Below, piece after piece: positions 13,023 to 48,763 of a stretch of 62,467 nt of DNA (within the stretch, counting starts at the first letter, position 1; every line of letters starts with the position of its first letter). The notes below the pieces were generated by a model. It was not told the origin of the DNA, searched no databases, and saw only the letters and a list, made by a program, of their open reading frames with translations. Source of the DNA: a virus (Duplodnaviria; Caudoviricetes); IMG/VR virus record IMGVR_UViG_3300045115_000277, positions 1 to 62,467 of that record; one strand, 5' to 3'. A program made the position numbers and the translations under genes.

Positions 13023-13024
13023 CA

Positions 13025-13450
13025 ATGGCACGACGCGAATTTGCTCTCGACCTCTCGCGCTATCACGAGCGCTTCGGCTACGGCGACCTGACCGTGTTCA
13101 TGACTTGGTTCGGCGACGAGCTTGTCCCCTGCCTCGTCATCGTGCCGTCGCACTATGAGGGCCATGAGCGCGTCACGCCCTGCGTCGTGCCCCAGCGCGC
13201 CGCGTGGGTGTGGAGCGAGACGCTGGGCGACCCGCGTCACTGCGCCCTCGCCTCCTACCAGTTCTGCCAGTTCCTGCGGATCAACCCTGACCCGAACAGC
13301 GTCATCCGCATCACGTCGATCATCCGCGATCACATCGGCGACCTCATCTCCATCCCCCCTGCTCCCTTCGAGACCGCCGTCGTGGCCGACGCCATACGGC
13401 GCGACAGCGACGGCAAGGAGCATCATACAGAGGTGCGCGACCGTGTTTGA
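13025..13450 (+). CDS. Hypothetical protein between terminase and portal
   Basis: MARREFALDLSR...; fills the terL-portal gap. Confidence 0.65.
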   Translation: MARREFALDLSRYHERFGYGDLTVFMTWFGDELVPCLVIVPSHYEGHERVTPCVVPQRAAWVWSETLGDPRHCALASYQFCQFLRINPDPNSVIRITSIIRDHIGDLISIPPAPFETAVVADAIRRDSDGKEHHTEVRDRV

Positions 13451-15758: not shown

Positions 15759-15778
15759 CGCACGACGAAGGACCGACG

Positions 15779-16734: not shown

Positions 16735-16908
16735 ATGCTCAGGCTCGATGTGCGTGTAGGCGAGAGCGTTGCCATAGGTGACGGGATCGTCCTGACGCTG
16801 GAGAAGAAGTCCGGCCAGCTGGCGCGCATCGCGTTCAAGGTCGATCCTGCCACCAAGATAAGGATGATGCCGGGCCTACCTGGCATCCCCCCTAAGACAT
16901 CGTCATAG
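16735..16908 (+). CDS. csrA: CsrA/RsmA-like RNA-binding protein (57 aa, not in ORF track)
   Basis: MLRLDVRVGESVAIGDGIVLTLEKKSGQLARIAFKVDPATKIRMMPGLPGIPPKTSS; 14 of the first 32 residues identical, ungapped, to E. coli CsrA as recalled ([32 protein letters not shown]); GGGG SD. Confidence 0.85.
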   Translation: MLRLDVRVGESVAIGDGIVLTLEKKSGQLARIAFKVDPATKIRMMPGLPGIPPKTSS

Positions 16909-16915
16909 GAACATG

Positions 16916-16999
16916 TTGCAAGTGTCGCGCGGATAGGGCAAAATCCGCGTCGGCAATGCGCATGAGTGCTCTGCGGGATTCAACTCCACGAGGGCACCA
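16916..16999 (+). promoter_or_regulatory. Capsid leader: TTGCAA-17-CAAAAT promoter, GCGCATGAGTG box (16958-16968), SD-sequestering stem
   Basis: GUGCUCU 16966-72 can pair with AGGGCAC 16991-97; ATG at 17000. Confidence 0.75.
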
Positions 17000-18100
17000 A
17001 TGGGACAGACTGTCATCCCCTTCGGCGATGCCAAGGCGCAGAAGAAGTGGTCGGGCAAGCTCTTCATCGACACGGCGAAGAAGAGCTACTTCCAACGCAA
17101 ATTCGTCGGCGAAGGCGAAAACAACATCATCCAGCGCAAGACTGAGCTGGACAGCGACGCGGGCGATCGCGTCAGCTACGACCTTTCCGTCCAGCTGCGC
17201 GGCAAGCCGACGGCGGGCGACAATCGCGTCAAGGGCAAGGAAGAAAGCCTCAAATTCTACACGGACGAGGTTGCGATCGACCAGCTTCGTCACCCCGTTT
17301 CCGCCGGCGGCCGGATGACGCGCAAGCGCACCGCGCACAATCTCCGCAACGTGGCGAAGGACCGGCTCTCCGATTACTGGTCGCAGTATATCGACGAGCT
17401 CAACTTCATCTACCTGTCGGGCGCACGCGGCATCAACGAGGATTTCATCGAGGACGCGGACTATACCGGCCATGCCGGTAATCCGATCCAGTCGCCGGAC
17501 TCCGAGCATATTCTGTTCGGCGGCGATGCCACCTCGAAGGGGACCATCAGTTCGGACGATGGCTTCACGCGTGAGCTTGTCGAGCGTGCATCGGTCCGGG
17601 CGCGCATGATGCGCGCGCTCAACCCCAAGACGGCGAACATGCTGCCGATCGATTTGAACGGCGAGCGCCACTACGTCATCCTCATGTCTCCCTTCCAGGA
17701 GTATAACATGCGGACCGAAGTGGGGGCCGCCGGCTGGATGGAAATCCAGAAGGCCGCTTCCGCCGCTGAGGGTAGGAACTCGCCGATCTTCAAGGGCGGG
17801 CTCGGCATGGTCAACAACGTCGTGCTCCATAGCCATGAATCGGTAATCCGGTTCAATGACTATGGCGCTGGCGCGAACCTCTCTGCCGCACGCGCCCTGT
17901 TCATGGGCCGCCAGGCGGGCGTGGTTGCCTACGGCTCCGCCGGCGGGCTCCGCTTCACCTGGAAGGAGGAAGTGGACGACTATGGCAACGAGCCAACCGT
18001 CGTCGCGGGCACCATCATCGGCGTGAAGAAAACCCGGTTCAACGGCAAGGATTTCGGCGTCATGGCGCTCGACACCTACGCACGAAACCCGGCCCAGTAA
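17000..18100 (+). CDS. Major capsid protein (N4 gp56 / DUF4043-like)
   Basis: KKWSGKLF...AGDRVSYDL...KGKEESLKFYTDEVAIDQLRH...NSPIFKGGLG...GVKKTRFNGKDFGV. Confidence 0.9.
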   Translation: MGQTVIPFGDAKAQKKWSGKLFIDTAKKSYFQRKFVGEGENNIIQRKTELDSDAGDRVSYDLSVQLRGKPTAGDNRVKGKEESLKFYTDEVAIDQLRHPVSAGGRMTRKRTAHNLRNVAKDRLSDYWSQYIDELNFIYLSGARGINEDFIEDADYTGHAGNPIQSPDSEHILFGGDATSKGTISSDDGFTRELVERASVRARMMRALNPKTANMLPIDLNGERHYVILMSPFQEYNMRTEVGAAGWMEIQKAASAAEGRNSPIFKGGLGMVNNVVLHSHESVIRFNDYGAGANLSAARALFMGRQAGVVAYGSAGGLRFTWKEEVDDYGNEPTVVAGTIIGVKKTRFNGKDFGVMALDTYARNPAQ

Positions 18101-18112
18101 GGAGCGGACGAC

Positions 18113-18556
18113 ATGGCAACGATCATCCATTCCAGGCACGCTTCCGGGACCGTGGCGACGCCCCGGCCGCAAACGGCTGGCGCTGTTCATGTGGCGAAGT
18201 TCCGGCACACTTTCTCGTCGGCGCTGGCTGCGGCCGCCATCCTCGAACTGGGCGTGCTTCCGGCATATGCCCATATCGTGGATTACAAGCTGATCCCCGA
18301 GGGCGACTTCGCGGGCGTTACAGCAAGCGGCGGCATCATGACCGGCGAACTCGGCGCAGACGACGATGCCCGCGATGCGGGCACGGAACTGTTCTCGGCC
18401 GCGACGGCGCTCGATGCCGTCCAGGCACCGGACAAGGCCGCCGCCTACAATGTCGCGCCGGTCGAGCAGGCGCGCGGGATCGGCCTTAAATTCAGCGGTC
18501 AGGTGGTCGCGAACGCGGCCAAGAAGCTGACCCTGATCGTCACCTACACGCAGTAG
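18113..18556 (+). CDS. Virion-associated (capsid decoration-like) protein
   Basis: Strong SD; directly after capsid and before a terminator hairpin. Confidence 0.6.
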   Translation: MATIIHSRHASGTVATPRPQTAGAVHVAKFRHTFSSALAAAAILELGVLPAYAHIVDYKLIPEGDFAGVTASGGIMTGELGADDDARDAGTELFSAATALDAVQAPDKAAAYNVAPVEQARGIGLKFSGQVVANAAKKLTLIVTYTQ

Positions 18557-18563
18557 GCGGCAC

Positions 18564-18601
18564 ACGGCGGGCGCTCTGCACAGCGCCCGCCGTCCCTTTC
18601 C
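18564..18601 (+). terminator. Putative intrinsic terminator/attenuator
   Basis: 12-bp perfect stem ACGGCGGGCGCT/AGCGCCCGCCGT followed by CCCTTTCC (weak U-tract). Confidence 0.6.
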
Positions 18602-18627
18602 CGTCACCCCGCCGGAAGGAGAGCGAC

Positions 18628-19362
18628 ATGCTCATCGAATCCATCATCCGACGCCCCAAGGGCACCAAGGTCGACATGGGCTCGGCCATCTACCATTTCC
18701 TGCCTGATGCCGACGGCCGCCATGTCGCGGAAGTCGAGGACCAAGCTCACATCATCGCCATTCTCGCGATCAAGGAAGGCTATCGGCCAGCCGACGGTTC
18801 GGTCCTCGCCGCAGCCAGCGCAGTGCCCGTAATCGAAGGCCCGTTCTTCATCGTTCGCGGCCCGCAGGACATCGAAGCCTTTGGCGATTGGGCGCGCGCC
18901 ATCCCCGAGATGCAGGACGATCCGGCCGAGTTCGTGCTGCTGATCGACAAGATCGCTGCCGGCGAAGCGAGCCTGGGCGGCTACGCGTTCCCCGCCAACG
19001 AAATCCCTTCGCCTGCGAGCGCGAGCGCAGGCACGCGGGCGGCGCGGGACACTTCTCCCCCGCCGCCGCCCGCGACCACCATTCTCCCCACAGCCCAGAG
19101 CCAGCAGGACTCCCGCATTGACGGCGGTTCGCAGTCTGCTGGTGAAGGCGGAGCCGGCGCGGCGGGTGGCGCCGGCTCCGAAACCGCCGAGGAAGAGGAC
19201 GGCGAGGAGGAGGAGGAGGAGGCGGAAGCCGAAGCGAGCGGCGAACTCGACCGGGAAGCGCTCGCCAAGGAGTATAGCGAGCTCGTCGGTCATCGCCCCA
19301 ACGGCAAATGGTCGGCCGAGAAGATCGCAGCCGCGATCGCCGAAGTGAAGGCGCAGGGCTGA
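18628..19362 (+). CDS. Hypothetical virion-associated protein
   Basis: AAGGAG SD; MLIESIIRRPKGT...; acidic linker. Confidence 0.65.
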   Translation: MLIESIIRRPKGTKVDMGSAIYHFLPDADGRHVAEVEDQAHIIAILAIKEGYRPADGSVLAAASAVPVIEGPFFIVRGPQDIEAFGDWARAIPEMQDDPAEFVLLIDKIAAGEASLGGYAFPANEIPSPASASAGTRAARDTSPPPPPATTILPTAQSQQDSRIDGGSQSAGEGGAGAAGGAGSETAEEEDGEEEEEEAEAEASGELDREALAKEYSELVGHRPNGKWSAEKIAAAIAEVKAQG

Positions 19363-19366
19363 TCCC

Positions 19367-20071
19367 ATGGCGCTGGCTTCGGAAGTGCTGGATCGGGCGC
19401 GCCGGCTGATCCAGGACGAAACCAGCGTCCGCTGGCCGCTTGTCGAGCTCTGTCTGTGGCTCGACGACGGACAGCGGGAAATCGCGCTCCAAAAGCCTTC
19501 CGCGATCAGTTCCAATGTCGTCCTGCCGCTCCAGCGCGGCACCCTCCAGACCATCCCGGACGAGGCGATCGCGTTGATGCGCGTCGTCCGCAACATCGCC
19601 TCCGTCGAGGAAGGTGGTCTGCGCAATCCCGGACCCGTCATTCGCATCTGCGCCCGTGACATGCTCGACGCGCAGAACCGCAACTGGCACGAGGATCGCG
19701 ACGTGCGGTTCTCGCGGACCGTGAAGCACTACGTCTATGACGAGGAGGACACGCGCTCTTTCTACGTCTACCCCGGGAATGACGGAACCGGACTTGTCGA
19801 GGCGGTGCTGTCCCTCGATCCCGTAAAGATCGAGCCGTTGCGCGGCGGCGACGCCGAGGATCTTGAGAGCTACGCGGTCGAGCTCACCCTGCCCGGCATC
19901 TACATCAACGCGCTCGTCGATTATGTCTGCTACAAGGCCTATGCGAAGGACGCGCTTGTCGCCGGTGCCGCCCAGCGCGCCGCGCTCCACTATCAGCAGT
20001 TCGCGAACGCAGTCGGGATCAAGGTCAATCAGGAAGCCCTGAAAAGCCCGAACCACACCGGGGCCGCCTGA
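19367..20071 (+). CDS. Head-tail adaptor-like protein
   Basis: LIQDETSVRW...WLDDGQREI...FYVYP...ALVDYVCYKAYAKD. Confidence 0.7.
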   Translation: MALASEVLDRARRLIQDETSVRWPLVELCLWLDDGQREIALQKPSAISSNVVLPLQRGTLQTIPDEAIALMRVVRNIASVEEGGLRNPGPVIRICARDMLDAQNRNWHEDRDVRFSRTVKHYVYDEEDTRSFYVYPGNDGTGLVEAVLSLDPVKIEPLRGGDAEDLESYAVELTLPGIYINALVDYVCYKAYAKDALVAGAAQRAALHYQQFANAVGIKVNQEALKSPNHTGAA

Positions 20072-20664
20072 TGCGCGAGCTTGCCGACTTTCTCCGCTGG
20101 GTGATGCCCTATGCAACCGCTTGCCCAGAACCCGTGGCCGAGAGCCACATCCTCGATGCCGCGCGCGAGTTCTGCGCGGCCACGCGATGCTGGCGGTTCG
20201 TGGACACGATCGTGGTCAAGGCCGATGACCGGGCGATCCTTTGCGTTCCGCCGGGCGCGAGCCTGCACGAGATCGAGGAAGCGCGCTTCGCTGGACGATC
20301 CCTCGACCGGATCGCGTATACCGACATCGACCACGGCGAAGGCGAGCCGCACGCGATCAGCCAGATCGACATGAACAGCGTTGCCCTTGTGCCCCATCGC
20401 GCCGGCACGCTCGACATCTCCCTCTTCCTCACGCCCGCTGTTCATGCCGATCAGCTGCCTGACATCCTCTACGACCGTTGGGCCAGGACCATCGCCGACG
20501 GCGCGCTTGCTTCCATCCTCGAATTGCCAGGCCAACCCTACACTGACGTGGGCGCGGCGGCCGCGCGGCGCGCGCGGTTCGAGCAGGCGAAGGACAGCAA
20601 CTTCAACGCCAGCAAGCGAGGCCAGCAGCGTGCCCCCGTCCGAACTCGACCCCGCTTCCTCTGA
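20071..20664 (+). CDS. Second adaptor / tail tubular-like protein
   Basis: VMPYATACPEP...AAREFC...IADGALASIL; TGATG overlap. Confidence 0.6.
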   Translation: MRELADFLRWVMPYATACPEPVAESHILDAAREFCAATRCWRFVDTIVVKADDRAILCVPPGASLHEIEEARFAGRSLDRIAYTDIDHGEGEPHAISQIDMNSVALVPHRAGTLDISLFLTPAVHADQLPDILYDRWARTIADGALASILELPGQPYTDVGAAAARRARFEQAKDSNFNASKRGQQRAPVRTRPRFL

Positions 20665-20749
20665 AAGCGCCCCCTTCACGGCCTCGCCCACGCCCTACAC
20701 GCGCCTGCCTCACGCGCCCGACCGGGAGGTGCGTGACCGCGGTGGCGAC

Positions 20750-21397
20750 ATGGCGGAACTGCACGACAAGCGCGGCGAACAGCGCCTGTTCTATTTCATC
20801 GACATGCGCCCTTATCTGCATGATGGCGAGAGCGTGGTGGCGGCAAGCGCCACCGTCGATCCGGTGTCCGAGCCGGAAATGCAGATCCAGCGCATGGAAT
20901 ATGCTGCCGACGCGGTGCTGGTCTGGCTCTCGGGCGGCAGGGACGCGGAACGCTACCTCGTCCGTGCCTCAGTCAGGACCAGCGGTCGGCGAACCTGGCT
21001 CATCACCTTCGCCGTCGTCACGCATGGGGACGCGGAGCCGGGCGAGGTCATCCTGCTTAGCGCGGAGCAGCTGAGCGACGGCGTTGCAGCCGGCGTCGCG
21101 CCGCAGCTAATGGCCTCGCCGCCCTCCGTGACGTTCCCCGACACCGCAGCCGGCGCGACATCCGCGCCGGTCGCTGTCAGCATTTCCAACATCGGCAGCG
21201 CGCCCGCCACGGTGCGATCGATCACGCTCACCGGGCCATTCGCTTTCACGAGCGACGCCGAAGGACGGCTGGACGCGGGCGAGGACTTCACGCTGCTCGT
21301 CCGGTTCAAGCCCCTTGCTCGCGGCTCGGCAACCGGGATACTCACCGTGGCCGGAAATGTCAGCGCAACCTTAGCTCTTTCGGGGCGCGCGACTTAG
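20750..21397 (+). CDS. Tail-fibre adaptor domain plus Ig-like (ASH/choice-of-anchor) domain
   Basis: VWLSGG...Y...TSGR motif, then SVTFPDT...ISNIGSAP...VRFKP...TGILTV. Confidence 0.6.
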   Translation: MAELHDKRGEQRLFYFIDMRPYLHDGESVVAASATVDPVSEPEMQIQRMEYAADAVLVWLSGGRDAERYLVRASVRTSGRRTWLITFAVVTHGDAEPGEVILLSAEQLSDGVAAGVAPQLMASPPSVTFPDTAAGATSAPVAVSISNIGSAPATVRSITLTGPFAFTSDAEGRLDAGEDFTLLVRFKPLARGSATGILTVAGNVSATLALSGRAT

Positions 21398-21399
21398 GC

Positions 21400-21452
21400 T
21401 ATAATGGTCCGGCAATCGCGCATGAGTGCGGTCTTATTCAAAGGCTGCGCAC
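21400..21452 (+). promoter_or_regulatory. Tailspike leader: TATAAT, box 21418-21428, 10-bp anti-SD stem
   Basis: GUGCGGUCUU 21426-35 can pair with AAGGCUGCGC 21441-50; ATG at 21453. Confidence 0.75.
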
Positions 21453-24176
21453 ATGCCCATTCTCGAAGGCTCTTCCTACGCGTCGTTCCTGATCCGCCTG
21501 TCACAGGCGGCGGACGAGATCGTCTCTGTTCAGTGGGCCACGGAGAAGGTGACGGCCGTTCCGGGCGTCGATTATGCCGACGCGAGCGGAACCGTCGAGT
21601 TCCTGCCGGGCGAGACGGAAAAGACCGTGCAGGTGCTCGTATACGGCCGCGCGCCGGGCGACACCAGCGAGCGCACCTTCCGCATCCGCGTTTTTCCCGC
21701 GCCCGACGTCATCCTGGGCGCGTCGATGCTGAACGCCGTGATCCGCGTCATCAACCAAGCCGGGGCGATCGTGACGGCCGTCACCGTGGCGAACGGGCCG
21801 GATGGCTTGAGCGCCTTCGAGCAGGCGAAGCTCCAGGGCTACGTCGGGACGCTGGCCGAATGGCTCGCGTCGCTCAAGGGCGAGGAGGGACGAGCCGCTA
21901 CGACCCAGATGTTCGAAGCGGGCCTCATTGATGCCGACGACGCCGAGGCTCTGTTCGCGCGCCTCGCTGCGACCGGCGGGCCCGCAGGCGGCTGGTATAA
22001 CAGCCTTGAAGCGGGCGCGGCCGATGTCGATGAAGGCGAAGGCTACTATGTCGCCACGCCCGAGGGTGACTTCTTCGCCGCGCAGAAGGTGGATGGCGTA
22101 GGTCGCAAGATCGTCGTCTTCGCTACCCACGCATCGTTCCGTAACAACGGCATCAACCTCTTTGACGAGGCGGTGGGCGATGGCGTGACGCTCGACCACG
22201 ACGCGCTGAACGACGTGATCGAGACGGCAAAGAACTGGGGTGTGGGCCTCATCAACTGCGGCGGCGCAGGCAAAACCTATCTGATCGGCGGCACGCCGGC
22301 GAAGGTCGACGCCAATGACGGCCAGAACCGCTATCTGGCTCGGCTCTTCTCCAACCTCACGTTCCGCGGCAACGGCCCTGGCTCCCGGCCGACGTTCAAG
22401 ATGAAGGGCGGCTATGAGCATCCCGGCGTCTTGTTCGGCGATCGCTGGTGGGATGGAGAGACGGTCGAGAATATCGCCTTCGAGAATATCGCCTTCGACG
22501 GCAACATGGCCGCGCAGATCATCCCCAACTATCCGGTCGGAACGCCCGACAACAATATCGACCAGCATCAGCGCGCGATCGGCCTGCTGCGGGCGAAGAA
22601 CCTGCATGTGCGCAATTGCCTGTTCCGCCATTGGCGCGGCGATGGCGTCGCCATGTCGACCTACACCTATGTCGATGATGATGACCCCATCACCTATTCG
22701 AGCCAGCTGACTGTCGAGGATTGCGAGTTCTTCGACATCTTCTCGATCGGGATCAGCTTCGACGGCTTCCAGATGCGGTCGCGCGGCAACTATTTCCACG
22801 GTGACGGCTACTGGGTCGGTGCCATCAGCTGCGAGAGCCTTTCAACGCGCGGCCGCATTCAGGAAATCTGGTCGATCGCCGACTATTTCGACTTTCGGGA
22901 CGGCCTCTCGCCCACGGCGGCAACGGTGCGCGACTATGCCACCAATTCAGCCCAGGCGCTCGCTGCGCGGCGGCACTTCCGCCCGGCGATCGCGCTTTCG
23001 GGCAATTACTACACGCAGAACCCCGGCAACGTCTTTGGCGGGCAGTTCGGTCGTGTCAGCATCATACACCCGAAGGTCCGGCAAGGCAGCATCCTTGCGG
23101 GCGGATTCGAACGCGTGTTCATCGACGCGCCGGACATCGAAAACACCTACGAAGACATCTCGAAAATCTGGCCCTCGCGGCCCCACGCCATCACCATCAC
23201 GCCGGCCGCCGGCGCGAACGCTGTCACCGGCCTGTCGAGGGCGATCGTCCGCAATGCGGTCATCAACCATGATCTGAGCTACCACGGCATCTATGCGTCG
23301 GCGATCGACGACATCGAGATCAGCGGCGGCAGCATCACCGGCCCGCGCACGGCGGCGATCCGGCTGGAGGACTGCGCGGGCTCCGTCTCCAATATCAAGA
23401 TCGCGGACTATGGCCTGAAGACCAACCGCGCCTACTGGCTCCCGCTCTTCGCGAACGAAGGCGGCATGACCCAGGATCAGAAGAACGCCGCGGCCGACGC
23501 GCTTGTCGGCTCGACCGGCGCTGCCGTGACGCTCTTCGGCTCGAAGGGCGACATCACGATCAGCGATGTGCGCGCGCTCGACACGCGGACCGGCGATGCC
23601 GTTAAGTCGGAATATGCGGTCTACGCCAATGTCGACACCAGCGACATTGTGCGGATCCGCGACGTCAACGCGCGGGGCATGCTCGCCATCAAGGACGTCA
23701 ACAATGCCGCCCTCGTGAGCGGTGTGATGGAGAACACATTCCGGGTCTGGAAGACGAACGCCAAGGTGGAGATCGGCGGCGGGCTGACGAGCTACGGCAA
23801 CCCCGAATTCATCAACGCGGCCGACGATCTCAGCGTCAAGCTGCGCGCGCCCCAGGCGAAGAACCGGACGCTCTCGTTCGTCGACGAGAACGATCATCTC
23901 GAAGCGCAAATCGTGCACACGGCCGACGGCACGCTCCAGATGGTCATGTTCAACGACGGGACGCCGGTCAACGCGCCTCTCGCTCTGCGCATCGACGGCA
24001 CCATGAAGGCCAACTGGACGTGGGAGACCCCGCTCCAGCTGATTGCCGATGCCGGCGACATGTCGTTCTGGCTCTGGGCAGACGACGACAAAAGGTTGCG
24101 CATCAAAAGCGCCCGGCCGGCCGGCAGCACGGACGGCGAACTGGTCGGCGATCAGACCGACACTCCCACACCATAA
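21453..24176 (+). CDS. Tailspike 1: Calx-beta domain plus right-handed beta-helix (depolymerase-like)
   Basis: ATEKVTAVPGVDY...GTVEFLPGETEKTVQV; AVGDGVTLDHDALN; NIAFDGN beta-helix rungs. Confidence 0.8.
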   Translation: MPILEGSSYASFLIRLSQAADEIVSVQWATEKVTAVPGVDYADASGTVEFLPGETEKTVQVLVYGRAPGDTSERTFRIRVFPAPDVILGASMLNAVIRVINQAGAIVTAVTVANGPDGLSAFEQAKLQGYVGTLAEWLASLKGEEGRAATTQMFEAGLIDADDAEALFARLAATGGPAGGWYNSLEAGAADVDEGEGYYVATPEGDFFAAQKVDGVGRKIVVFATHASFRNNGINLFDEAVGDGVTLDHDALNDVIETAKNWGVGLINCGGAGKTYLIGGTPAKVDANDGQNRYLARLFSNLTFRGNGPGSRPTFKMKGGYEHPGVLFGDRWWDGETVENIAFENIAFDGNMAAQIIPNYPVGTPDNNIDQHQRAIGLLRAKNLHVRNCLFRHWRGDGVAMSTYTYVDDDDPITYSSQLTVEDCEFFDIFSIGISFDGFQMRSRGNYFHGDGYWVGAISCESLSTRGRIQEIWSIADYFDFRDGLSPTAATVRDYATNSAQALAARRHFRPAIALSGNYYTQNPGNVFGGQFGRVSIIHPKVRQGSILAGGFERVFIDAPDIENTYEDISKIWPSRPHAITITPAAGANAVTGLSRAIVRNAVINHDLSYHGIYASAIDDIEISGGSITGPRTAAIRLEDCAGSVSNIKIADYGLKTNRAYWLPLFANEGGMTQDQKNAAADALVGSTGAAVTLFGSKGDITISDVRALDTRTGDAVKSEYAVYANVDTSDIVRIRDVNARGMLAIKDVNNAALVSGVMENTFRVWKTNAKVEIGGGLTSYGNPEFINAADDLSVKLRAPQAKNRTLSFVDENDHLEAQIVHTADGTLQMVMFNDGTPVNAPLALRIDGTMKANWTWETPLQLIADAGDMSFWLWADDDKRLRIKSARPAGSTDGELVGDQTDTPTP

Positions 24177-24188
24177 GGCGGCGGAACG

Positions 24189-30460: not shown

Positions 30461-31035
30461 AGCCAGGCGCGTCGGCATCCGTCGAGCAGAACCAGCTTTT
30501 CCGGCAGCTGAAGGAAAAGGTCGAGATCCTCAACGGCGATCGGGGCGACCAGCGCAAGGCAGCGATGCGGCAAGGCGATGCGCAGGATTTGCGCGAATTC
30601 ATCGCCAACCTTCGAAAGGGCACGGCCGACGTCCAGAAGGACTTGGCAGACGCCGTCGACAAGCTCAACCAGCTCGGGACCACGCTCGATCAGGTGGAAC
30701 AGAGCCTCGACGACACCAAGGCAGACCTCGAACAGACCGAGCAGGCGCTTGTTGCCGCCCAGGCGACGCTCAGCACCCTTCAGCAAACGCTGACATCGGT
30801 GCAGTCGAGCATCGAGCAGGCCCAACAGTCGATCGAGGCGCTCGACCAGAGCAGCGCCGCCGTGGCAAGTGAGCTTGCCGCGTTACGCGCCGCCGCGACG
30901 GGTGTCACCGTTCCTGATGTGTCGGCCGTCGCCGTGTCGGCACCGCCAACGGCAGCGGAATATAACGCTCTGCTCGGCGACCTAATAGCGATGCGCACCG
31001 CGCTTCTCTCGCTGAAGGCGGCAATCGACACCTGA
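30457..31035 (+). CDS. Coiled-coil tail needle/plug-like protein
   Basis: Long heptad repeats; C-terminal APPTAAEYNAL. Confidence 0.6.
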   Translation: MKPGASASVEQNQLFRQLKEKVEILNGDRGDQRKAAMRQGDAQDLREFIANLRKGTADVQKDLADAVDKLNQLGTTLDQVEQSLDDTKADLEQTEQALVAAQATLSTLQQTLTSVQSSIEQAQQSIEALDQSSAAVASELAALRAAATGVTVPDVSAVAVSAPPTAAEYNALLGDLIAMRTALLSLKAAIDT

Positions 31036-31048
31036 CGCAGTTATGCGC

Positions 31049-31103
31049 TATGATACCGGCACGCGCATGAGTGCGGTTCCTCAATCACGGACCCCCTGCG
31101 CGC
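31049..31103 (+). promoter_or_regulatory. GNAT/ejection operon leader: TATGAT, box 31063-31073, alternative stem
   Basis: GUGCGG 31071-76 can pair with CUGCGC 31096-101, and UCC with GGA; ATG at 31104. Confidence 0.7.
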
Positions 31104-31544
31104 ATGTCGATCCCGTCCATCATCCTTGACGAACCCGATCGGCTCATCGCCTGGGCGAGCGAGCAGCTGGGCGTCGGCTTCTTCAATGACGCGCGTGCGA
31201 TCGGCTGGGGAACGCTGGACGACATCCGCGCGGTCGCCGTCTACGAGCGGTGGACCGGAAGCGACTGCTGCGTCCATCTTGTAAGCGATCAGCGGCCCGG
31301 CTGGCTTGCTCGCCGGTTCATTGCCGCAGGGTTTTCCTACCCGTTCATCGTGGGCAGGCTTCGTCGGCTCACAGGGCTTGTTCCCGCCTCAAATTTTCGC
31401 GCCCTGCGCCTCAACGAGCATTTCGGATTTAGGCGCGAAGGAGCGTTGCGCGCAGGCGCGGACGACGGCGGTGACATGATCGTCATGGGAATGCTCCGCG
31501 AGGAGTGCCGCTTCATCTCGGAAAGGGACAAGAGCCATGGGTAG
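31104..31544 (+). CDS. GNAT-family acetyltransferase (internal virion protein type)
   Basis: FSYPF...RLTGLVPASNFRALRLNEHFGFRREGALR...MGMLREEC. Confidence 0.8.
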   Translation: MSIPSIILDEPDRLIAWASEQLGVGFFNDARAIGWGTLDDIRAVAVYERWTGSDCCVHLVSDQRPGWLARRFIAAGFSYPFIVGRLRRLTGLVPASNFRALRLNEHFGFRREGALRAGADDGGDMIVMGMLREECRFISERDKSHG

Positions 31545-32640: not shown

Positions 32641-32648
32641 GAGGCGAT

Positions 32649-33902
32649 ATGGTGTCGTTGGGAATGGGCCTGGGGGCGTTCGCTCAAGGCATGGGCCAGG
32701 GTATGCAGATGGCGCAGCAGGTGAAGGGCGTCCTGCGCGACAAGAAGCTGCACGCCATGGAACAGGACGCGACGGCGGCCGGAACCGCCGCGCGCGAGGC
32801 AGACATCGCCAAGGCGATCCAGACCACCACCGGAGCGAACGGTGCGCAGTCGTTCTCCGTCGGCGGCCAGCAGTTCAGCGATGCCGGCCAAGCCCGGAAC
32901 GCCGCTGCCCAGCAGGTCGGCACGGTCATGGACTATTATCGCAACCAGACCGTCCCCAAGCTGATCGAAGGCTATATGAAGATGGGGGACGCCCAGAAGG
33001 CGTCCGCCCTTCAGTCGTGGGTCGAGACCGAGGACGCGAACAATCTCACCAAGGATTGGGCGCGCGCCACGCGCATGGCGCTGCTCGGCGACAACAAGGC
33101 CGCCATGCGCGGCTTCGGAAAGCTCTATGAGAAGTTGGAGCCGGGCTCGAAATATGTCGGCATGGAGGACATCACCGAACCCGTCTACGAGGAGCGCAAG
33201 CTGCCGAAGACGGGCGAGACGATCCGGGTCGAGGCCGGCACGCGCCCGGTCGGCGTCCGCCTGAAGCTCAAATCCGCAGACGGCGAAGAAGTGACGCACG
33301 ACTTCGGGAGCACGGAGGATTTGTTTCAGACCGCCATGCTGACCCTTTCTCCAGACAAATTCGTCGGCCGGGCTTTCGCGGAGGTGGACAAGGCGCAGGC
33401 GTCGCGCGCGGCGGCAGCGAAGGATGCACGCGAGTTCGGGCAGGACGTGCAGATGAAGCGCATGGACGCCGTCATCGCCGACCAGCGCGATCAGCGGCAA
33501 CACGAGCGGTCGATCATCCGCGACGATCGGCAGTTCGCGCAGACCACCGCGCGAGACGATCGCCAGTTTGCGCAGCAGAGCCAGCGAGACGCCACCTTGC
33601 AGGGCTATGATCTCGAAAAAATCACGACATCGAAGCAAATGGATGCTGCTCTGGCACCCTCCATGGAAGCAGCTAAGGCCAAGGGCGACACTGCCGAGGA
33701 TGCACGCAAAGCGATCGCTGGTATCTGGAAAAACCTTTCGACCAATTCCCTCCCGGGCAAAGACGGCTTCAATGCCAAGCCGGTCGAAGAACAAATTGAG
33801 CAGGCGGCGCGCATCTACCGTCAGCAGAGCACGGTAGCGCGCGGTGTCGTCGCCGGCGCCAAGCAGGAGTCACAGTCGCGGGGCATTCCAAAGCTGTGGT
33901 GA
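32649..33902 (+). CDS. Putative ejection (internal virion) protein
   Basis: GLGAFAQGMGQG N-terminus; helical; precedes the giant gene. Confidence 0.6.
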   Translation: MVSLGMGLGAFAQGMGQGMQMAQQVKGVLRDKKLHAMEQDATAAGTAAREADIAKAIQTTTGANGAQSFSVGGQQFSDAGQARNAAAQQVGTVMDYYRNQTVPKLIEGYMKMGDAQKASALQSWVETEDANNLTKDWARATRMALLGDNKAAMRGFGKLYEKLEPGSKYVGMEDITEPVYEERKLPKTGETIRVEAGTRPVGVRLKLKSADGEEVTHDFGSTEDLFQTAMLTLSPDKFVGRAFAEVDKAQASRAAAAKDAREFGQDVQMKRMDAVIADQRDQRQHERSIIRDDRQFAQTTARDDRQFAQQSQRDATLQGYDLEKITTSKQMDAALAPSMEAAKAKGDTAEDARKAIAGIWKNLSTNSLPGKDGFNAKPVEEQIEQAARIYRQQSTVARGVVAGAKQESQSRGIPKLW

Positions 33903-33922
33903 CAGCCTCCCCATGATCGGGC

Positions 33923-33988
33923 TAGGATAGGCGCAGCCGCGCATGAGTGTGGTCTTCATCGCAAGACCCCTCATCGCGAGTGCACGCC
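33923..33988 (+). promoter_or_regulatory. Giant-gene leader: TAGGAT, box 33939-33949, long alternative stem
   Basis: AUGAG 33943-47/CUCAU 33970-74 and GGUCUU 33951-56/AAGACC 33963-68. Confidence 0.7.
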
Positions 33989-45900: not shown

Positions 45901-48175
45901 GGCGCTCGACATCAAGTTTCGTCAGGCGAAGCGGGCTTATGACGCGGAGCTGATCCGCATCGCCGACACCGACATGGCGCCAGAGGCGCGCGAACTCGCC
46001 CAGGCGCAAGCCGAACGCGAATGGGCGAAGCAGCGGCAGATGCAGGGGTGGGCCAAGGGCGCACGCATGACGCGCCTGCGCGCTTTCTTCGAGACCAACA
46101 ATCTGGCTGGCCCCTATTTCCCCCTCGCCCGCTTCGGCAACTTCTTCGTGACGGTGCGGGACAAGGAGACCGATCAGGTCATCAGCTTCTCTCGGTTCGA
46201 GCGGCCGGGCGAACAGCAGGCCTTCGCCAAGCAGATGAAGGAAGCCGGGCACATCGCGACGATGGGCGTGCTCGATGACGGCGGCGCGCTCAAGGCGCAG
46301 GTGGACGCCCGCTTCGTCACCGACATCGAATCAATCCTCGAAGGCGCGGACGTCAGCGACTCCGTACGGGACGCGGTCTGGCAGCGCTGGCTCGAAACCA
46401 TGCCCGACATGTCGATCCGAACGAGCCGCATCCACCGCAAGGGGCGCGCCGGCTTCTCGTCCGACGCGATCCGCGCTTTCGGGCATCACATGTTCCACGG
46501 CTCGCATCAGCTTGCGCGCCTCAAATACGCGCTCGATCTGGACGAGACCGTCGCGCTTGCGCGCGATCAGGCCAAGACGATGCCGGACCCGGTCCGCGCT
46601 GGCCTGATCGTCAACGAGATGGCCCGGCGCAATCAGTTCGTGATGAACCCGACAGGCGGGCCGCTTGCGCAGGCTCTGACGTCGGCCGCGTTCGTCTACC
46701 ACCTCTCGGTCAGCCCGGCGGCGGCGCTGGTGAACACGGCGCAGACCGCGGTGATGGGTATTCCGATCCTCGCGGCCTACGACAAGCGCGCCGGGCGCGG
46801 CGCGGCGCGGGCAGCGTTCGAACTCAACAAGGCGCTGCTCGACTTCACCGCGGGCAAGGGGCACGCGGCGCGCGCCGGGCGGCTCAGCGCGCAAGAGCGT
46901 GACGCCATGGAGCAAGCGTATGACACGGGCCTGATCGAGCGCACGCAATCCCACGATCTCGCAGGCGTGGGAGAAACCGGGGTGGAGTATAGCCCGGCTC
47001 GCACCAAGGTCATGGGTGCCATCAGCTGGGCGTTCCACCACACCGAGCGGATGAACCGCGAGGTAACGTTCCTCGCTGCCTATCGCATGGCCCGGCGGAA
47101 CGACGAACCGCACAACATGGCGATCGATCGGGCCGCCGAACTGACGTGGAAAATCCACTTCGACTACCAGAACACCAGCCGTCCGCGCATCATGCAGTCC
47201 GACACGGCCAAGGTGCTGCTGACCTTCCGCAACTTCCAGGTGAACATGCTCTGGAGGCTGTTCCGCGACGCCCATCAGGCGGTCAAAGGGCGGAGCAAGG
47301 ATGAGCGTCGCGAAGCACGCGTTCAGCTTGCCGGCGTGACGGGCATGATGATGCTCTCGGCCGGCGTGCGGGGCACCTGGCTCTACGGCGTCGCGATGGT
47401 GCTCGCTTCCATGTTCTTCGGCGATGATGCCGAGGACAAGTTCTCCAGCGCCATAATTGAGGCTCTGGGGCATCGGCTGGGCGGGATGGCACTTAACGGC
47501 GTTCCCGGCGATGTGCTGGGTATCGACCTGTCGCAGCGCATCGGTATGCCGGACCTCTGGTTCCGCTCGCCGGATCGCGAGCTCGAAGGCGCGACGGAGT
47601 TCGACTATTGGGCCATGCAGGTGCTTGGCGCGGGGGTCGGCATTCTCCGCAACGCGTGGACGGGGGTGTCGATGATCGCGGAGGGCAACACCTACCGCGG
47701 TGTCGAGACGATCATGCCCAAGTTCGCCAAGGATTTGATGCGCTCCTATCGCTACATGAGCGAGGGCGCACGCACGCTCAAGGGCGACCCTATCGTGGAG
47801 GACATGGACGTCGCTTCGGCCCTGAAGCAGGCGCTCGGCTTCACGCCGGCGGAACTGACGGAGCGCTACGACCAGAACCGGTCGATGAAGAACCACGAAC
47901 AGCGCATCCTTGATGAGCGCAGCCGCATCCTGTCGGACTTCGACCAAGCGCAGCGGGAGGGGCAATCGACTGCCGCGGTCGTTGACGCGATTGACAGCTT
48001 CAACCGCGCCAACCCGGACTATCCGATCACGGCGCGATCGCTGCGGCAGTCGATGCGGTCGCGGCAGCAGATGCGCGAGCGGAAGATCGGCGGCGTCTAT
48101 CTAAATCCGCGCCTCGCCGACCGGATGCGCGATGAAGCGCCCGAGCTGATCTACAGCGAGGACGACGACGAATGA
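33980..48175 (+). CDS. Giant DarB-like polyvalent virion protein (SLT, pyrophosphatase-like, N6-MTase, SNF2 helicase, nuclease-like, HExxH peptidase, PLxRFG); start probably GTG 33980 or TTG 33989
   Basis: QESRYNP...AKGLMQF; GADGDHVDVF...FDEHKVMVGF; LEPSMGIGNF, IGNWPF; HEVGTGKT, VDEAH, QRNGRGQRQGN; LLHEMFH; YFPLARFG. Confidence 0.9.
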   Translation: MHALAKSIFQLSPLDAETQRQAEADSASLSAPELPAIGAPPPLSIPALPAAPASAGSSVGRVPGAVKPPAALISAFEQAALKYDIPINIIMALGEQESRYNPMALGTPTQWGRAKGLMQFLDDTAARLGINPFDPLQSIDAAAMQLRQRLNKGYSMADAVKEHFAGPDRKKWGVKTARYGEEVLGRAARLREELAPRYERGPWYSPGAKPMKTDGRPVSADAIGAVIGGTKKAPPSLAATFENPHSAKSVIARYQSESQRLPNEGGISATRQPTGTLANALRGAATSSVEAFRQAGQGVRMQFEDAAGPTIDAWVERNMPGAPGLSLDEQRAAFGKTNTEQAFARSQDRAAAATPKFDSWLADAAYGGLQSIIQTAPGIATGIAFGPAAGLATLGGQTQAQSYAKYRSRGASPGMALAGGLGEGSVEIATEMLPMGWLAEKFGTVGLKRFMSEYLLREMPTEQVATFLQDAIDTAIANPDKTWGDFWDERADAAGKTAVATLMQSGAFAGANAALARVAREEVDQALGHPAPAASAVPAAPAERAVAPAAPAPEPAAPAPPPPAGPLGRALAQAPAPEPVQPPASAIVPDPVDPMTPLTPLTLATDGAEYSVRLLGETEDAIWVKTDSGEELQIPRADVASGAVQLLGPEAAPPQAVKEDLTAEAAPEQPAPAQVEPAAPAEAEAVDPETGEILAVPDAPTERPAPVAAAPKPVRSKPEPLDGMDEPQLRERLKYLATQARTNAGWTKPLLAERKRVEAAIDAMNAAQSGDDATAAIKEAEAKAATSPLNDRPEPTQAQKDAGNYAKGHVSIGGLDVSIENPAGTSRRPEWPPLKHSYGYVKRSEGADGDHVDVFLGPKAGDPTNPVFVVDQVNKDGTFDEHKVMVGFGDKGAARRGYLANYEKGWSGLGDITEMSFEAFRDWVKDGGRTNAPAGTKVGAATPSRDEASEQPVTATVSVSEPPVDAPPPPDQSPTAQAPTPAAQDVPPASEPKPSVRRETDKKNQNPYVRNGERYTLTADVDYLRAGGAYKVESAGKKSAFFANLETDGRTSVQNWRIERALKDGVMRRVDDPAPRPSARPAPAKEDVPRLIEEGFAANRAVLKNFKKGDAVEFDHGNFYRDGRSRTFSGTVDVVQSKEQGTIRVVSESGAAYSVQARNLRHRKSDDTQSPTRQFEGNKLFTADKVEAARARLKEKMNRINSGIDPEVLLDGIVITGAYIEAGVRKFGEYAAAMRADFGDRINPYLLSFWEGARNYPGLDTAGMSSPEESRAAHADLLSPGLPSQEAIALGTEVAKPKRKKAASTSRTLRDDWGVDHIDGWTPIEGGQNAETDFGLKGGVKDAFLADATAYMRAVAATLRPLGFSPHVGSKGKEANPVSRNAAGPAVSGDVSLHLRHASGANVYATIGATSMRGAVPTNSAGVSIMYRVSRKDGDKQATAGVNRWAPADLSAVDLADTIAWEVGRGKPELTRDVAEPEPAGQGRDRSGIPTPEAGRRNGDDPAARPDLGDLAEGQPEDVGEPAIAGPDGEDGVRGAGPDVAAAGRADEGGPADDGRARGSGTRGTAAGARDAGAGRQRPADDVAGRAPVSQEPVARADGPAKRRRADSVGEPDLFQDAPELSAAPLAPLSPAKTGPGNFHIANPLEIVGGGPVARFDRNRQAIETYNAIRDEGRAATAEEQRILAGYTGWGSFGQELFQGTWARPMPKDSWQERDRWLRDHLGKEEWESAQRSITNAHYTDPPTVMAMWAMMQRMGFKGGRVLEPSMGIGNFFGMMPADLQSRSQLAGIELDSLTGGMAQLLYPDANVRVMGYQESRTPDDFYDVVIGNWPFENTVIADRLYDRLSPYLHDYFFLKALDQVRPGGIVMGITSSGSMDKKATGVRRELARKGELVAAFRLPSGAFAEYAGTKVVTDIVILRKRVEPISLADGEGWINSVPYQTPNGEVHINEYYVANPSHVIGTIDFGHGTTRGQPGMIVHRPDDMAEQLQRLIQTVPQDAYATEARTKHISFVANHTADREGALTKTKDGLFIVRGEHLAPAAEVERYAVKDAAKTAQRVDQLEQLVDMRRAYATLIDAERSGDAGPARKALKASYDAFTKAHGKLADAFGLAYLRKIDDPFYPALAALEIDGKPAAILTRSTTRPAPSIDNPSIAEAFVLARNSTVNPSLDDIAQRARVGRDEAKAELLSTGAVFELPNGDVAPSDMYLSGNVREKLRQAKAAVAEGMAHLQRNVDALAAVVPADVPYFKIETQLGATWISPSIYAEFVGHMLGLPNGNDVEVRYTSGRWAVRLEDRIKNRPEARTGFGTDEYSFQRLVNAAFSNQTVTIRRRDSEGGQYVDHAATEEVNGKIAEMRTKFADWLWSDPERRVAVEAEYNEVRNAFATPRFDGSFLRFEGMALSLGNGPFDLRQHQADAIWRALVSRRSLNAHEVGTGKTFTMGGIAVESRRYGIARKPLIFAHNANSKSVAAEIQQMYPAAKILYIDNLTPATIDVKMRQIANDDWDAVVVPHSLIDRFAFREETLMDMAREEIAALEEEAYAAAADDGATLKDEMLDDPEELKKLRSPTAKELVKQRQRIIETIRKQSHRASREGAISFEELGVDMVMVDEAHEFKKPPISTRMKMKGLNTSTSDRSIALSFLTRYVRAQNGGGNVHLFTGTPVTNTLTEVFHMMRYIMQEEMQAAGIDQWDGWFGSFAREVLDVEQNAAAEYEAVTRLAGFINVPELRRMIGQYMDTVFASDMPEMQPRRTRSGKTMSDELTEAERAELLNGRTEGAADRPYKKVINVTSDLTPAQKVIFEELRGYARAWRSMSGKERREAMAAGAPESPIITEGLANKASFDVRLYDGEAIAGQEGKIADDEGSKASRVVANVREIYDSSPLATQVIFAEQGFSNRVTRSLGRDADGNRQTKTIPYFSTIRDIVERLVASGIPRAEIAIVDGSTTKDKRKEIALAMNAATIRVVIGSTGTLGVGVNMQKNLRAMHHMDAPWMPGDLEQRNGRGQRQGNQWNTVLEYRYLTDRLDGRRWQVLAIKQRFITAFLKADDSARVIEGEAAADEQSDILQSFAEAAGDPRILIREKLRKQLDGAQRRERLHTQGIANALGQARLLTKAADDTEADLADIDRRGAVAAVDALVAANAGKGFSITVDGKRHEKRKDADDAIGDWAAFNMRVGDDARAIGRFGEHELMLAWPANSAEPELRMTIEGRKFSGGSVQGLEQSLRKFSADVERRRGQLAEQRATVGRLEAVANEPFHLAADLDRYAKALTDLEADIQANPVPPPAWLRTGAPVDTPVFWKGAELTVAGHRWTAEGWFVLANDARGDVVVPYLEAKDAQGINLYEERPFEAPQLIEKEVKTDPAQSEENPAAYSIGAPRGGGFTSPDGLRQHLEASRLGSSIKAMLDAGKIVLHADATTLPIGAPRASIRDFLDGEAVATLSGQEFAPDGRPLTVKVTQWYAERGDAIVDTPNIGPVTLDAVSVKNSVSHGLGRSKSAAFAAVPEVLRRGRIVHSEPWRGARDGAMAYFVAAPIRLGDQDMIEIVMIRSDSHGARMYVHEVAVREVLRLPAVKTSADAAEAGVRAGAGAGAIRTILENVYGANTIADKGRKSVDQAADIQGVTAPDGSIHLVANQLSSRTALPVLLHEMFHAGVRPLIGNASWTAALGRLSALYRSAALRESTADRGNSAYWRKALARVDVAAPPPGQVVEEFAAYALEERALAPAGVGEALDRLVGALKAWLLRRFGVQLGKITPAQLQALATAALRSGVTAPVADTAFSRVVPAAEDIDAATPGMIANLVTKAMDGNMSVLGVIPLRPLLSELASRLPAAREYLALKQAMDQTRDSWHAKADAVAQPWLKFRVLHKAENGKLMDLMHEATLAGVDPAKPFASILTPADRKVLADGPGSDIYDAAAEKAARDETRKIAHARLVSQFTALTGEAQQIYATVRDTYRALSEAFEQTLLDNLSKALDIKFRQAKRAYDAELIRIADTDMAPEARELAQAQAEREWAKQRQMQGWAKGARMTRLRAFFETNNLAGPYFPLARFGNFFVTVRDKETDQVISFSRFERPGEQQAFAKQMKEAGHIATMGVLDDGGALKAQVDARFVTDIESILEGADVSDSVRDAVWQRWLETMPDMSIRTSRIHRKGRAGFSSDAIRAFGHHMFHGSHQLARLKYALDLDETVALARDQAKTMPDPVRAGLIVNEMARRNQFVMNPTGGPLAQALTSAAFVYHLSVSPAAALVNTAQTAVMGIPILAAYDKRAGRGAARAAFELNKALLDFTAGKGHAARAGRLSAQERDAMEQAYDTGLIERTQSHDLAGVGETGVEYSPARTKVMGAISWAFHHTERMNREVTFLAAYRMARRNDEPHNMAIDRAAELTWKIHFDYQNTSRPRIMQSDTAKVLLTFRNFQVNMLWRLFRDAHQAVKGRSKDERREARVQLAGVTGMMMLSAGVRGTWLYGVAMVLASMFFGDDAEDKFSSAIIEALGHRLGGMALNGVPGDVLGIDLSQRIGMPDLWFRSPDRELEGATEFDYWAMQVLGAGVGILRNAWTGVSMIAEGNTYRGVETIMPKFAKDLMRSYRYMSEGARTLKGDPIVEDMDVASALKQALGFTPAELTERYDQNRSMKNHEQRILDERSRILSDFDQAQREGQSTAAVVDAIDSFNRANPDYPITARSLRQSMRSRQQMRERKIGGVYLNPRLADRMRDEAPELIYSEDDDE
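38397..38807 (+). CDS. Putative nested gene (+1 frame) inside the giant gene, 136 aa
   Basis: GGAG SD, ATG 38397; natural helical sequence with mostly G/C third positions, while the host frame there is a G/A/D/R low-complexity linker. Confidence 0.65.
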   Translation: MSQNPNQLDKAAIEAEFRRLKQDGVMETIPLRDRILATWQKDSPRMWANLQSQGLTEKMAFVVQARMWQRQDELMKAGLPMTDAREEAEREELLLEPETQEPDDSDLPTTLQDAPPYLKSQWREQMALLSDDAPTA

Positions 48176-48183
48176 CGCTCAAT

Positions 48184-48210
48184 GGGGCCGGCGCGACCGG
48201 CCCCGCATTT
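48184..48210 (+). terminator. Putative terminator after the giant gene
   Basis: GGGGCCGG/CCGGCCCC stem followed by GCATTT. Confidence 0.55.
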
Positions 48211-48214
48211 GCGA

Positions 48215-48352
48215 TTGTGGCAACCCTGCTGATCGGCTAGATTCCGGTCTCATTCAATCGCGCATGAGTGCGGTCCAACAGGGCTGGCAACGTGACGCGA
48301 AATCTCTCCCACAACCTGCACATGCCGACGGCCGCCGAGCGGAGGCCGTCCT
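48215..48352 (+). promoter_or_regulatory. Lysis leader: TTGTGG-17-TAGATT, box 48260-48270, uORF and SD-hiding hairpin
   Basis: UGCGGUCC 48269-76/GGGCUGGCA 48281-89; GACGGCC 48327-33/GGCCGUC 48344-50 covers GGAGG. Confidence 0.7.
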
Positions 48353-48763
48353 ATGGCCCATGAAACGAGCACGCAGGAATGGCTGCTGGGCGGGGGCGGC
48401 CTTGTGACCCTCGGCGGCGGGATCGTGTGGGCGTGGAACGCAATTTGGGCGCGTGCCGACAAGCGCCAGCGTGAACTGGATGCCCGCGCCGCGAAACTGG
48501 ACGAAGAGGAAGCACAGGCAGTGCTCGACATGAAGGGGCGGCTCAACGCGATCGAGGGTGCGTTGGTGTCGATGGGCGAGCAGCTGGAGCAGCACCGCCT
48601 CGCCCTTCACATCCTCGTGGCTAAGGTCGCGCGCGAAGACCCCGCCGCGCCCGAACTGGAGCAGGTCGCCAACATCCTTGGCAACGCATTCCCTGTGCAC
48701 CTGCACATCCCGGCCGACATGGCCGACGCGATCAACCGCATCGATAAAGGAGCTGCCGCATGA
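48353..48763 (+). CDS. Single-TM coiled-coil lysis-cassette protein (holin/antiholin-like)
   Basis: N-terminal hydrophobic segment; first gene of the lysis unit. Confidence 0.6.
   Translation: MAHETSTQEWLLGGGGLVTLGGGIVWAWNAIWARADKRQRELDARAAKLDEEEAQAVLDMKGRLNAIEGALVSMGEQLEQHRLALHILVAKVAREDPAAPELEQVANILGNAFPVHLHIPADMADAINRIDKGAAA

Follow-up and report, generated by a model that had tools for sequence, protein, structure and literature searches.

The stretch of DNA analyzed here, called the window throughout, is the 62,467-base IMG/VR provirus record IMGVR_UViG_3300045115_000277 (63.7% G+C). Its genome layout is that of a Bcep22/PBC5-like podophage, and its capsid-region DNA is 70–75% identical to that of Bcep22/PBC5-type phages of Erwinia, Burkholderia, Pseudomonas, Sinorhizobium and Ralstonia. 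All late genes lie on the + strand (Table 1), where terminase, portal and scaffold genes lead into a 57-residue CsrA-like open reading frame (ORF) and then into the major capsid gene. A preliminary description of this DNA had placed a CsrA-type gene at the close of a terS-terL-portal-scaffold block, and that order is borne out here, with terL and scaffold assigned by position. Our subject is a short motif, GCGCATGAGTG (hereafter the box), that stands in front of capsid, tail, fibre, giant-protein and lysis genes downstream of the CsrA-like ORF, together with the CsrA-like protein that may read it; the comparisons below suggest that the phage probably controls translation of its own virion genes.

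Six exact copies of the box were found in the window, all on the + strand, where 0.13 would be expected and where none of 100 shuffled sequences reached six. Five of these, at 16958, 21418, 31063, 33939 and 48260, had been listed in the preliminary description with exact coordinates; its statement that none occurs before terS was wrong, a sixth exact copy being located at 6905. No copy was found between 6915 and 16958 in an exact-motif search, and the head-assembly block (10696–16699) is thus box-free. The five leader copies occupy intergenic gaps of 91, 55, 68, 77 and 177 nucleotides (nt), respectively, which are among the large gaps of the late region, and they lie 8–16 nt 3′ of -10-like hexamers (CAAAAT, TATAAT, TATGAT, TAGGAT and TAGATT), each with a -35-like hexamer 17–18 nt above it. 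A consensus promoter scan flagged two of these five promoters (31025–31054 and 33899–33928), the other three having been read by eye. Given these distances to the -10-like hexamers, the box is expected within approximately the first 15 nt of each of five late transcripts, which would start separately from the predicted promoters.

To follow the box beyond the window we relied on a capsid-protein search, which recovered 45 related IMG/VR loci (47–93% capsid identity), in place of an exact 15-mer pattern scan of viral contigs that returned at least 119 loci, mostly single chance matches. Of these loci, 41 have 100 nt or more of sequence upstream of the capsid gene, and every one of them shows a homologous box (diverged in two, L126 and L135) at the same place and following a TTGCAA/GATAAT-type promoter. 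In an alignment of 22 leaders the box and the ATG were the sole invariant columns; RNAalifold recovered from this MAFFT alignment only a 4-pair hairpin, whose GCGC/GUGC stem is present throughout. Each genome carries one to five good copies, each in its own phage's spelling, and a loose form of the pattern was found 83 times on the gene strand vs. 7 times on the opposite strand across the window and the 45 loci. Cultured phages carrying the box include Bcep22 (GGA), PEp14 (UGA), Itty13 (AGA), Dimitile (GGA) and Atu_ph08 (UGA); Bcep22, PEp14 and Itty13 have it both in the capsid leader and elsewhere, and Atu_ph08 has two divergent late operons, each headed by a box. Among the relatives the box is situated 20–35 nt from the ribosome site, and the spacing from box to start is ~29–53 nt. 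A distant relative, L162 (47% capsid identity), has four boxed leaders (519, 3910, 5270 and 8399), each with a perfect GCGC-AGGA-GCGC hairpin 29–32 nt before the start.

The spelling of the box varies at its sixth position: among 33 distinct capsid leaders, 16 have G there, 11 have U and 4 have A, and the remaining 2 have a diverged box. G-type boxes, GCGCA-GGA-(U/C/A or none)-GUGC, match the textbook CsrA site, so that GGA in the loop is a feature of 16 of the 33 leaders, plus Bcep22. The CsrB repeat is described as CAGGA(U/A/C)G, and in vitro selection (SELEX) as yielding the consensus RUACARGGAUGU in a hairpin context (PMC7652899); the relatives' CAGGAUG, CAGGACG and CAGGAAG equal the CsrB repeat exactly, and their four-pair hairpin context is that of the SELEX result. 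U-type boxes include those of the window, PBC5 and L160, and the UGA spelling of the window, GCGCA-UGA-GUGC, is a variant of this site and the local form of an RNA element shared by Bcep22/PBC5-like podophages.

The 3′ half of the box, often together with its NGA, is complementary to the sequence around the ribosome site and start codon, and this complement (the anti-box) changes along with the box, compensating box/partner spellings being GGACGUGC/GCACGUCC, AAGAGUGC/GCACUCUU, CAUGAGUGC/GCACUCAUG, GGAGUGU/ACACUCC and GGAGCGC/CGCUCC. Since the anti-box is out of register in the sequence alignment, the long-range pairing was tested by duplex energies rather than by an alignment fold. Across 44 distinct leaders, the best box:start-region duplex had a mean of -16.8 kcal/mol, compared to -9.3 kcal/mol for random 19-mers from the same genome, with p<0.05 in 31 leaders and at least two start-codon bases paired in 32. 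With one representative for each of 15 box types, cognate pairs stood at -14.3 kcal/mol and non-cognate pairs at -11.0 kcal/mol, and none of 10,000 permutations was as low as the cognate set. Nine of 15 further, non-capsid leaders also reached p<0.05; for at least two of the six weak ones (L225 and L237) the start was possibly mis-called by the rule applied, and for a sixteenth box (L230) no start could be located. By computation, freeing the ribosome site cost 13.0 kcal/mol on average and 8.4 kcal/mol when the box loop was held unpaired (n=39). Folds of the whole leader exceeded shuffled sequences in stability in the relatives (z -2.9 to -5.9), with mixed values in the window (z -0.48 to -4.37). 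The stems hiding the Shine-Dalgarno (SD) sequence that the preliminary description had proposed are accordingly supported by comparison, in that the box complements the SD/start-codon region and the complement covaries. Position 6 takes part in this pairing: of 18 leaders with U6, 17 pair it with an A, which in 13 of the 17 is the start-codon A, and of 21 leaders with G6, 13 pair it with a C. In the U spelling the anti-box is one base closer and the CAU of the box covers the AUG. Because U6 pairs mostly with the start-codon A, pairing in cis explains the G-to-U change.

Within the window itself, a start-hiding helix is clear for the leaders at 21418 and 33939, moderate for that at 16958 and weak for those at 31063 and 48260. 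In the minimum-free-energy fold of the capsid leader (-21 kcal/mol, z -2.35), the box and the UCU following it pair with GAGGGCAC as well as with the AUG, and in the tail leader GCAUG.AGUGCGGUCU pairs with AGGCUGCGCA.CAUGC (-21.5 kcal/mol, z -4.37), none of 200 shuffles being as stable; the giant-protein leader folds at -21.3 kcal/mol (z -2.16) with a duplex p of 0.003. In the lysis leader the best partner of the box is the AUG region of an upstream ORF (uORF; duplex -13.4 kcal/mol), and the minimum-free-energy fold instead pairs the box locally with CGUGACGCGA (z -1.52). This uORF (48322–48363; MPTAAERRPSYGP) has its stop 11 nt beyond the start of the gene at 48353, whose SD sequence is enclosed by a GC-rich hairpin of its own; the uORF runs across this hairpin, a layout that suggests translational coupling of the two. 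For three late ORFs the earliest in-frame start, which gene callers use, is a GTG within the box (21426, 31071 and 33947), as in the Atu_ph08 record (L214, 2468), where the capsid gene is annotated from such a GTG. These in-box starts are probably wrong, and starts 33–36 nt downstream (ATG 21453, ATG 31104 and GTG 33980) are preferred because they better fit the leader anatomy, although no ribosome site is evident for GTG 33980. As a practical outcome, late-gene starts called at an in-box GTG likely need correcting.

Table 1 Head-assembly genes, boxed leaders and the additional motif copy in the window
Feature	Position	Strand	Details
Sixth exact copy of the box	6905–6915	+	spans start codon of DNA methylase ORF 6909–7613; ATG of the motif is the start
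terS	10696–11454	+	Pfam Terminase_2, E 1e-22
Presumed terL	11451–13022	+	position only; no Pfam match
P22-type portal	13122–15758	+	Pfam P22_portal, E 2e-184
Presumed scaffold	15779–16699	+	position only; no Pfam match
CsrA-like ORF, 57 amino acids	16735–16908	+	last gene of head-assembly block; candidate box reader
Capsid leader	16916–17002	+	-35 TTGCAA 16916–16921; -10 CAAAAT 16939–16944; box 16958–16969
Capsid leader, 3′ part	16990–17002	+	SD + anti-box + AUG, GAGGGCACCAAUG
Major capsid gene	17000–18100	+	Pfam Phage_capsid_3, E 7e-69
Tail-operon leader	21377–21456	+	-10 TATAAT 21400–21405, weak -35; box 21418–21429; SD + anti-box + AUG 21440–21456
Fibre-operon leader	31025–31107	+	promoter TCGACA-18-TATGAT 31025–31054; box 31063–31074; anti-box + AUG 31096–31107
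Giant-protein leader	33899–33982	+	promoter GTGACA-18-TAGGAT 33899–33928; box 33939–33950 (ends in T); anti-box CCUCAUCGCG, then GUG 33980
Lysis leader	48184–48363	+	terminator-like hairpin 48184–48204; -35 TTGTGG 48215–48220; -10 TAGATT 48238–48243; box 48260–48271
Box partner in lysis leader, CUGCACAUGC	48316–48325	+	surrounds AUG (48322) of 13-codon uORF

The candidate reader of the box is, by profile and structural-template alignment, a divergent CsrA homologue. Pfam CsrA (PF02599) matched residues 1–42 of the 57 at 24.9 bits (E 2e-5); searched against structures, a profile of 19 phage homologues matched RsmE (2jpp) at E 6e-11 and seven more CsrA entries at E≤0.001, and the window protein alone matched 2jpp at E 0.0066 over residues 1–36. 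Residues identical to RsmE are L2, L4, G9-E10, G15-D16, G27 and R31. L4 in β1 and R44 in β5 are described as critical for RNA binding by CsrA (PMC7652899), and the former is present, M1-L2-x-L4 aligning residue for residue with RsmE. Further along, the window protein reads K41-I42-R43-M44 by its own residue count; the homologue profile has a consensus R one position before 44, and position 44 itself is R or K in some relatives. A complex prediction with two copies of the CsrA-like protein scored 0.34 against a mark of 0.42 and was counted neither way.

Gene and box travel together. The preliminary description had tied the box to the CsrA-like gene, and its proposed check, co-occurrence in related phages, came out in favour of that link: the box accompanies the gene in every related genome that could be checked, all 40 loci with upstream sequence having both. 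In 35 of these the CsrA-like ORF lies shortly before the capsid gene, and in 4 it lies 2–4 kb upstream; in the 40th, PBC5, a homologue annotated as hypothetical (gp26) directly follows the scaffold gene on the other strand, ~30 kb from the capsid gene. The late leaders of PBC5 are still boxed despite this distance, as a trans-acting reader would predict. For 933W, Vibrio phage 1.205.O and KPP25, three phages whose capsids are distantly related, neither gene nor box was found within 2.5 kb.

As anatomy, a phage-owned CsrA-and-leader switch is well supported by these comparisons. In the mechanism we propose, each leader would adopt one of two mutually exclusive folds, either the GCGC/GUGC hairpin presenting A-N-G-A or the helix that buries the start, the latter being thermodynamically favoured by default. 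The CsrA-like protein, made at the end of the terminase-portal-scaffold block, would bind the box in its hairpin form, and the bound hairpin would keep the start region open, allowing the late messages to be translated and perhaps stabilizing them; the switch would come on once the head-assembly operon had been expressed. Some form of relief is implied because the capsid gene, which we infer to be heavily translated, nonetheless has a conserved and self-blocking leader, and activation is favoured because the arm needing release carries a CsrA-type site, the only sequence conserved in that leader. That the five boxes head the capsid, tail, fibre, giant-protein and lysis transcripts as two-state leaders switched on by the phage CsrA-like protein has, in our estimate, about an even chance of being correct. 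The wider claim, that the CsrA proteins of this clade read A-N-G-A and through a two-state box activate the late programme in its entirety (capsid, tail, injected giant protein and lysis), is offered tentatively, as a possibility that we consider rather doubtful.

Several observations weigh against this mechanism. On the RNA side, every box in the window (CAUGAGUG) is without the GGA that canonical CsrA needs, and the small hairpin shows no double-compensated pair, only G-C/G-U changes. In some leaders the start-region pairing is weak or lacks specificity: the duplex p-value was ≥0.05 in 13 of the 44 leaders, three of the four L162 leaders are boxed without significant pairing (p 0.23–0.61) and have an AAGGA-type ribosome site, the capsid leader of the window is not partner-specific, with a rank of 12 of 30 when set against non-cognate partners, and the fold of the fibre leader at 31063 is weak (z -0.48, 58 of 200 shuffles as stable, duplex p 0.086). 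On the protein side, the window homologue falls under the Pfam gathering score (24.9 vs. 27 bits), and residues 37–57, with the β5 region that in CsrA contains R44, are unaligned to RsmE. Finally, the co-occurrence of gene and box, perfect as it is, is confounded by phylogeny and probably rests on one evolutionary event, with only three negative controls.

The most serious rival keeps the same protein and box and reverses the sign: a dimer would clamp the box hairpin and the ribosome site, as in CsrA-glgC and RsmE-hcnA, and so repress or cap late translation, for instance so that capsid stays in proportion to scaffold or lysis is postponed. We consider this unlikely on balance while regarding it as a serious alternative. 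Repression is described as the commonest mode of the CsrA family (PMC7652899), and the fairly constant spacing of ~29–53 nt between box and start places box and SD inside the 10–63 nt bridging range given there. AGGAG or AAGGA serves as the ribosome site in many GGA-type leaders. The best fit comes from the L162 leaders, which combine the box with AAGGA and no fold-back pairing in what looks like the layout of a classical CsrA repressor target. The start-codon-spanning boxes of the window methylase (6905) and the putative PBC5 integrase (L149:961), considered further below, could likewise act only repressively if bound. Yet on most leaders the conserved, covarying self-pairing already blocks the start, so that a repressor would be redundant; the window ribosome sites (GAGGG, AAAGG) have no second GGA or UGA motif; and an extra rationale would be required for repressing a protein that is the most abundant of the virion and is expressed together with its assembly partners.

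A second alternative dispenses with the reader: the 5′ end would pair with the start region purely in cis, protecting the mRNA or throttling translation, and the CsrA-like protein would act on host RNAs or otherwise. The drift of position 6 among G, U and A, following the cis partner, speaks for this alternative, as does the missing GGA of the window boxes, and published work proposes host-directed roles for the protein (moron, CRISPR repression) and records one peptide of the JC1 homologue in virions. A helix needs complementarity alone, however, and the same 12–13 nt GCGCA..GA..GUGC is kept in 2–5 leaders per genome and down to 47% capsid identity; the hairpin-forming 5′ GCGC is invariant in the 22-leader alignment, the L162 leaders retain the box without the pairing, and many hosts, according to published accounts, have no Csr system with which to interfere. 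We judge a cis-only role, like one at the DNA level, to be less likely than repression, and improbable in its own right.

The preliminary description had gone further in another direction, proposing an orthogonal pair in which the window protein has switched to a UGAG loop and is thereby insulated from GGA sites. All six window copies do read UGAG, and window-lineage proteins share a β5-region K/R-I/V-R/K motif that is absent from most GGA-type proteins. But spellings are mixed within genomes: the L121 record, at 92% capsid identity, has GGAG in its homologue of the 31063 leader beside UGAG in its other leaders, and L131, L132 and L136 each combine a UGA capsid leader with an AGA second leader, the pairing being significant in both. 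Close proteins also accompany different spellings, the sister CsrA-like proteins of L129, L139 and L145 occurring with U, G and A boxes, respectively, and no residue convincingly tracked G, U or A at position 6 when the protein alignment was judged by eye. With U6 accounted for by its pairing with the AUG, the proposed pair is not supported, and we hold it to be very unlikely. If the CsrA-like protein is the box reader, it would instead tolerate G, U or A at position 6, which would itself depart from what is usual in the family, CsrA ligands being described as fully conserved at GGA (PMC7652899). The remaining idea, that the box is a promoter-proximal DNA operator or activator site whose RNA pairing is incidental, draws on its constant adjacency to promoter-like sequence but is highly improbable given that its distance to the -10 element varies from 8 to ~19 nt, that it is strictly strand-specific with a covarying start-codon complement, and that it matches an RNA-protein site consensus.

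The copy at 6905 was considered as a true regulatory site and rejected. It has no -10-like element just upstream, its similarity to the leader copies stops at 11 nt, its fold is unremarkable (z -0.83), and the methylase starts of four relatives are without the motif, one keeping 9 of the 11 bases; it is probably a chance occurrence and not a leader box. In PBC5 (L149), an exact box at 961–972 similarly crosses the start codon of ORF 866–2266, whose sequence from that ATG begins MSALTDKQ and which is taken as a putative integrase by position only; both phages have the UGA spelling, and the two start-codon-spanning copies may be chance or repressive sites. A further box-like string, GCGCATGATGCGC, lies inside the capsid coding sequence (17602–17614) and recurs at the same place in relatives (L146 10597; L127 728), where it most likely reflects conserved coding sequence rather than a site.

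Phage Mu offers a comparison: its Com protein activates translation of the late gene mom and is reported to recognize a small hairpin just 5′ of a stem in which the mom start site is hidden. Com is a zinc-finger protein with no relation to CsrA, and it serves one gene, not a set of late operons. Another parallel is Escherichia coli ymdA, in which a leader hairpin hides the ribosome site, the CsrA site lies in the 5′ arm and CsrA activates (Renda et al. 2020, as related in PMC7652899). The boxed leaders resemble ymdA in having a ribosome-site-hiding helix with the regulator's site in its 5′ arm, which binding would open, and differ in that 2–5 operons of each phage have the arrangement, which is kept throughout a phage family, and in that activation is here a proposal. 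Measured against CsrA/RsmA/RsmE regulation generally, the protein is homologous and the relatives' box is likewise a short hairpin with CAGGA(U/C/A)G in or around its loop near the mRNA 5′ end, whereas the gene is phage-borne, with its sites in late leaders of the phage itself, the 57-residue protein is without an aligned β5/R44 region and C-terminal helix, and U replaces the first G in every window box. No CsrB-type antagonist small RNA was seen, Rfam giving no match at gathering score over the whole window on both strands.

The same gene, between scaffold and capsid genes, has been annotated as a CsrA-like regulator in Bcep22, BcepIL02, DC1, JC1, PEp14 and Itty13. The published accounts consulted regard it as a moron or a possible modulator of the host or of CRISPR and name no target, in agreement with the preliminary description, which had mentioned CsrA-like annotations in Bcep22-like podophages without described targets. 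A literature search, with the founding Bcep22 paper (PMC3187461) outside its reach, found no published description of the leader-box system. The system thus appears to be CsrA-type leader control in an unpublished form, to which the window adds a GGA-less spelling whose altered base pairs with the start codon. Of the host groups concerned, Burkholderia cepacia/cenocepacia and S. meliloti have no chromosomal csrA according to PMC7366521.

The genes behind the boxed leaders complete the picture of the late region. After the capsid gene come adaptor genes, a beta-helix tail protein and large tail proteins; the 21418 leader is followed by a 916-residue beta-helix protein and then by 1568- and 522-residue proteins, and the 31063 leader by a fibre gene with a Peptidase_S74 domain (S74 chaperone). 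The gene behind the 33939 leader ends at 48175 and encodes a 4,731-residue polyvalent protein carrying SLT, InPase, Helicase_C, LPD3 and LPD39 domains. In the lysis cassette, the gene at 48353–48763 is followed by DUF7940 and Phage_lysozyme genes (Pfam). A GC-rich hairpin followed by a T-rich run (18557–18627) lies 3′ of the gene after the capsid gene, at a place where Bcep22 has an annotated terminator (L191 4164–4189), and the next gene has no box in front. Elsewhere in the window, ORF 8116–8685 joins a GapR-like DNA-binding domain to an FtsK gamma domain, an unusual pair that hints at an alphaproteobacterial host, and just past the lysis cassette a Wzy_C (O-antigen ligase/polymerase-type) membrane protein gene (50896–52371, - strand) is possibly a lysogenic-conversion gene or the first host gene.

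For this phage family, the long-annotated CsrA genes gain a concrete and testable job, with a conserved site on the phages' own late leaders and a covarying start-hiding helix. The window shows that the canonical GGA can be lost while the site stays on every late leader, the altered base being the one that pairs with the start codon, and the family as a whole is a natural experiment on what a CsrA-fold protein truly reads. If the wider claim is true, its protein would be the first CsrA-family reader with a dispensable first G, working in hosts without a Csr system of their own, and a translational licensing step would be added to the control of phage late genes.

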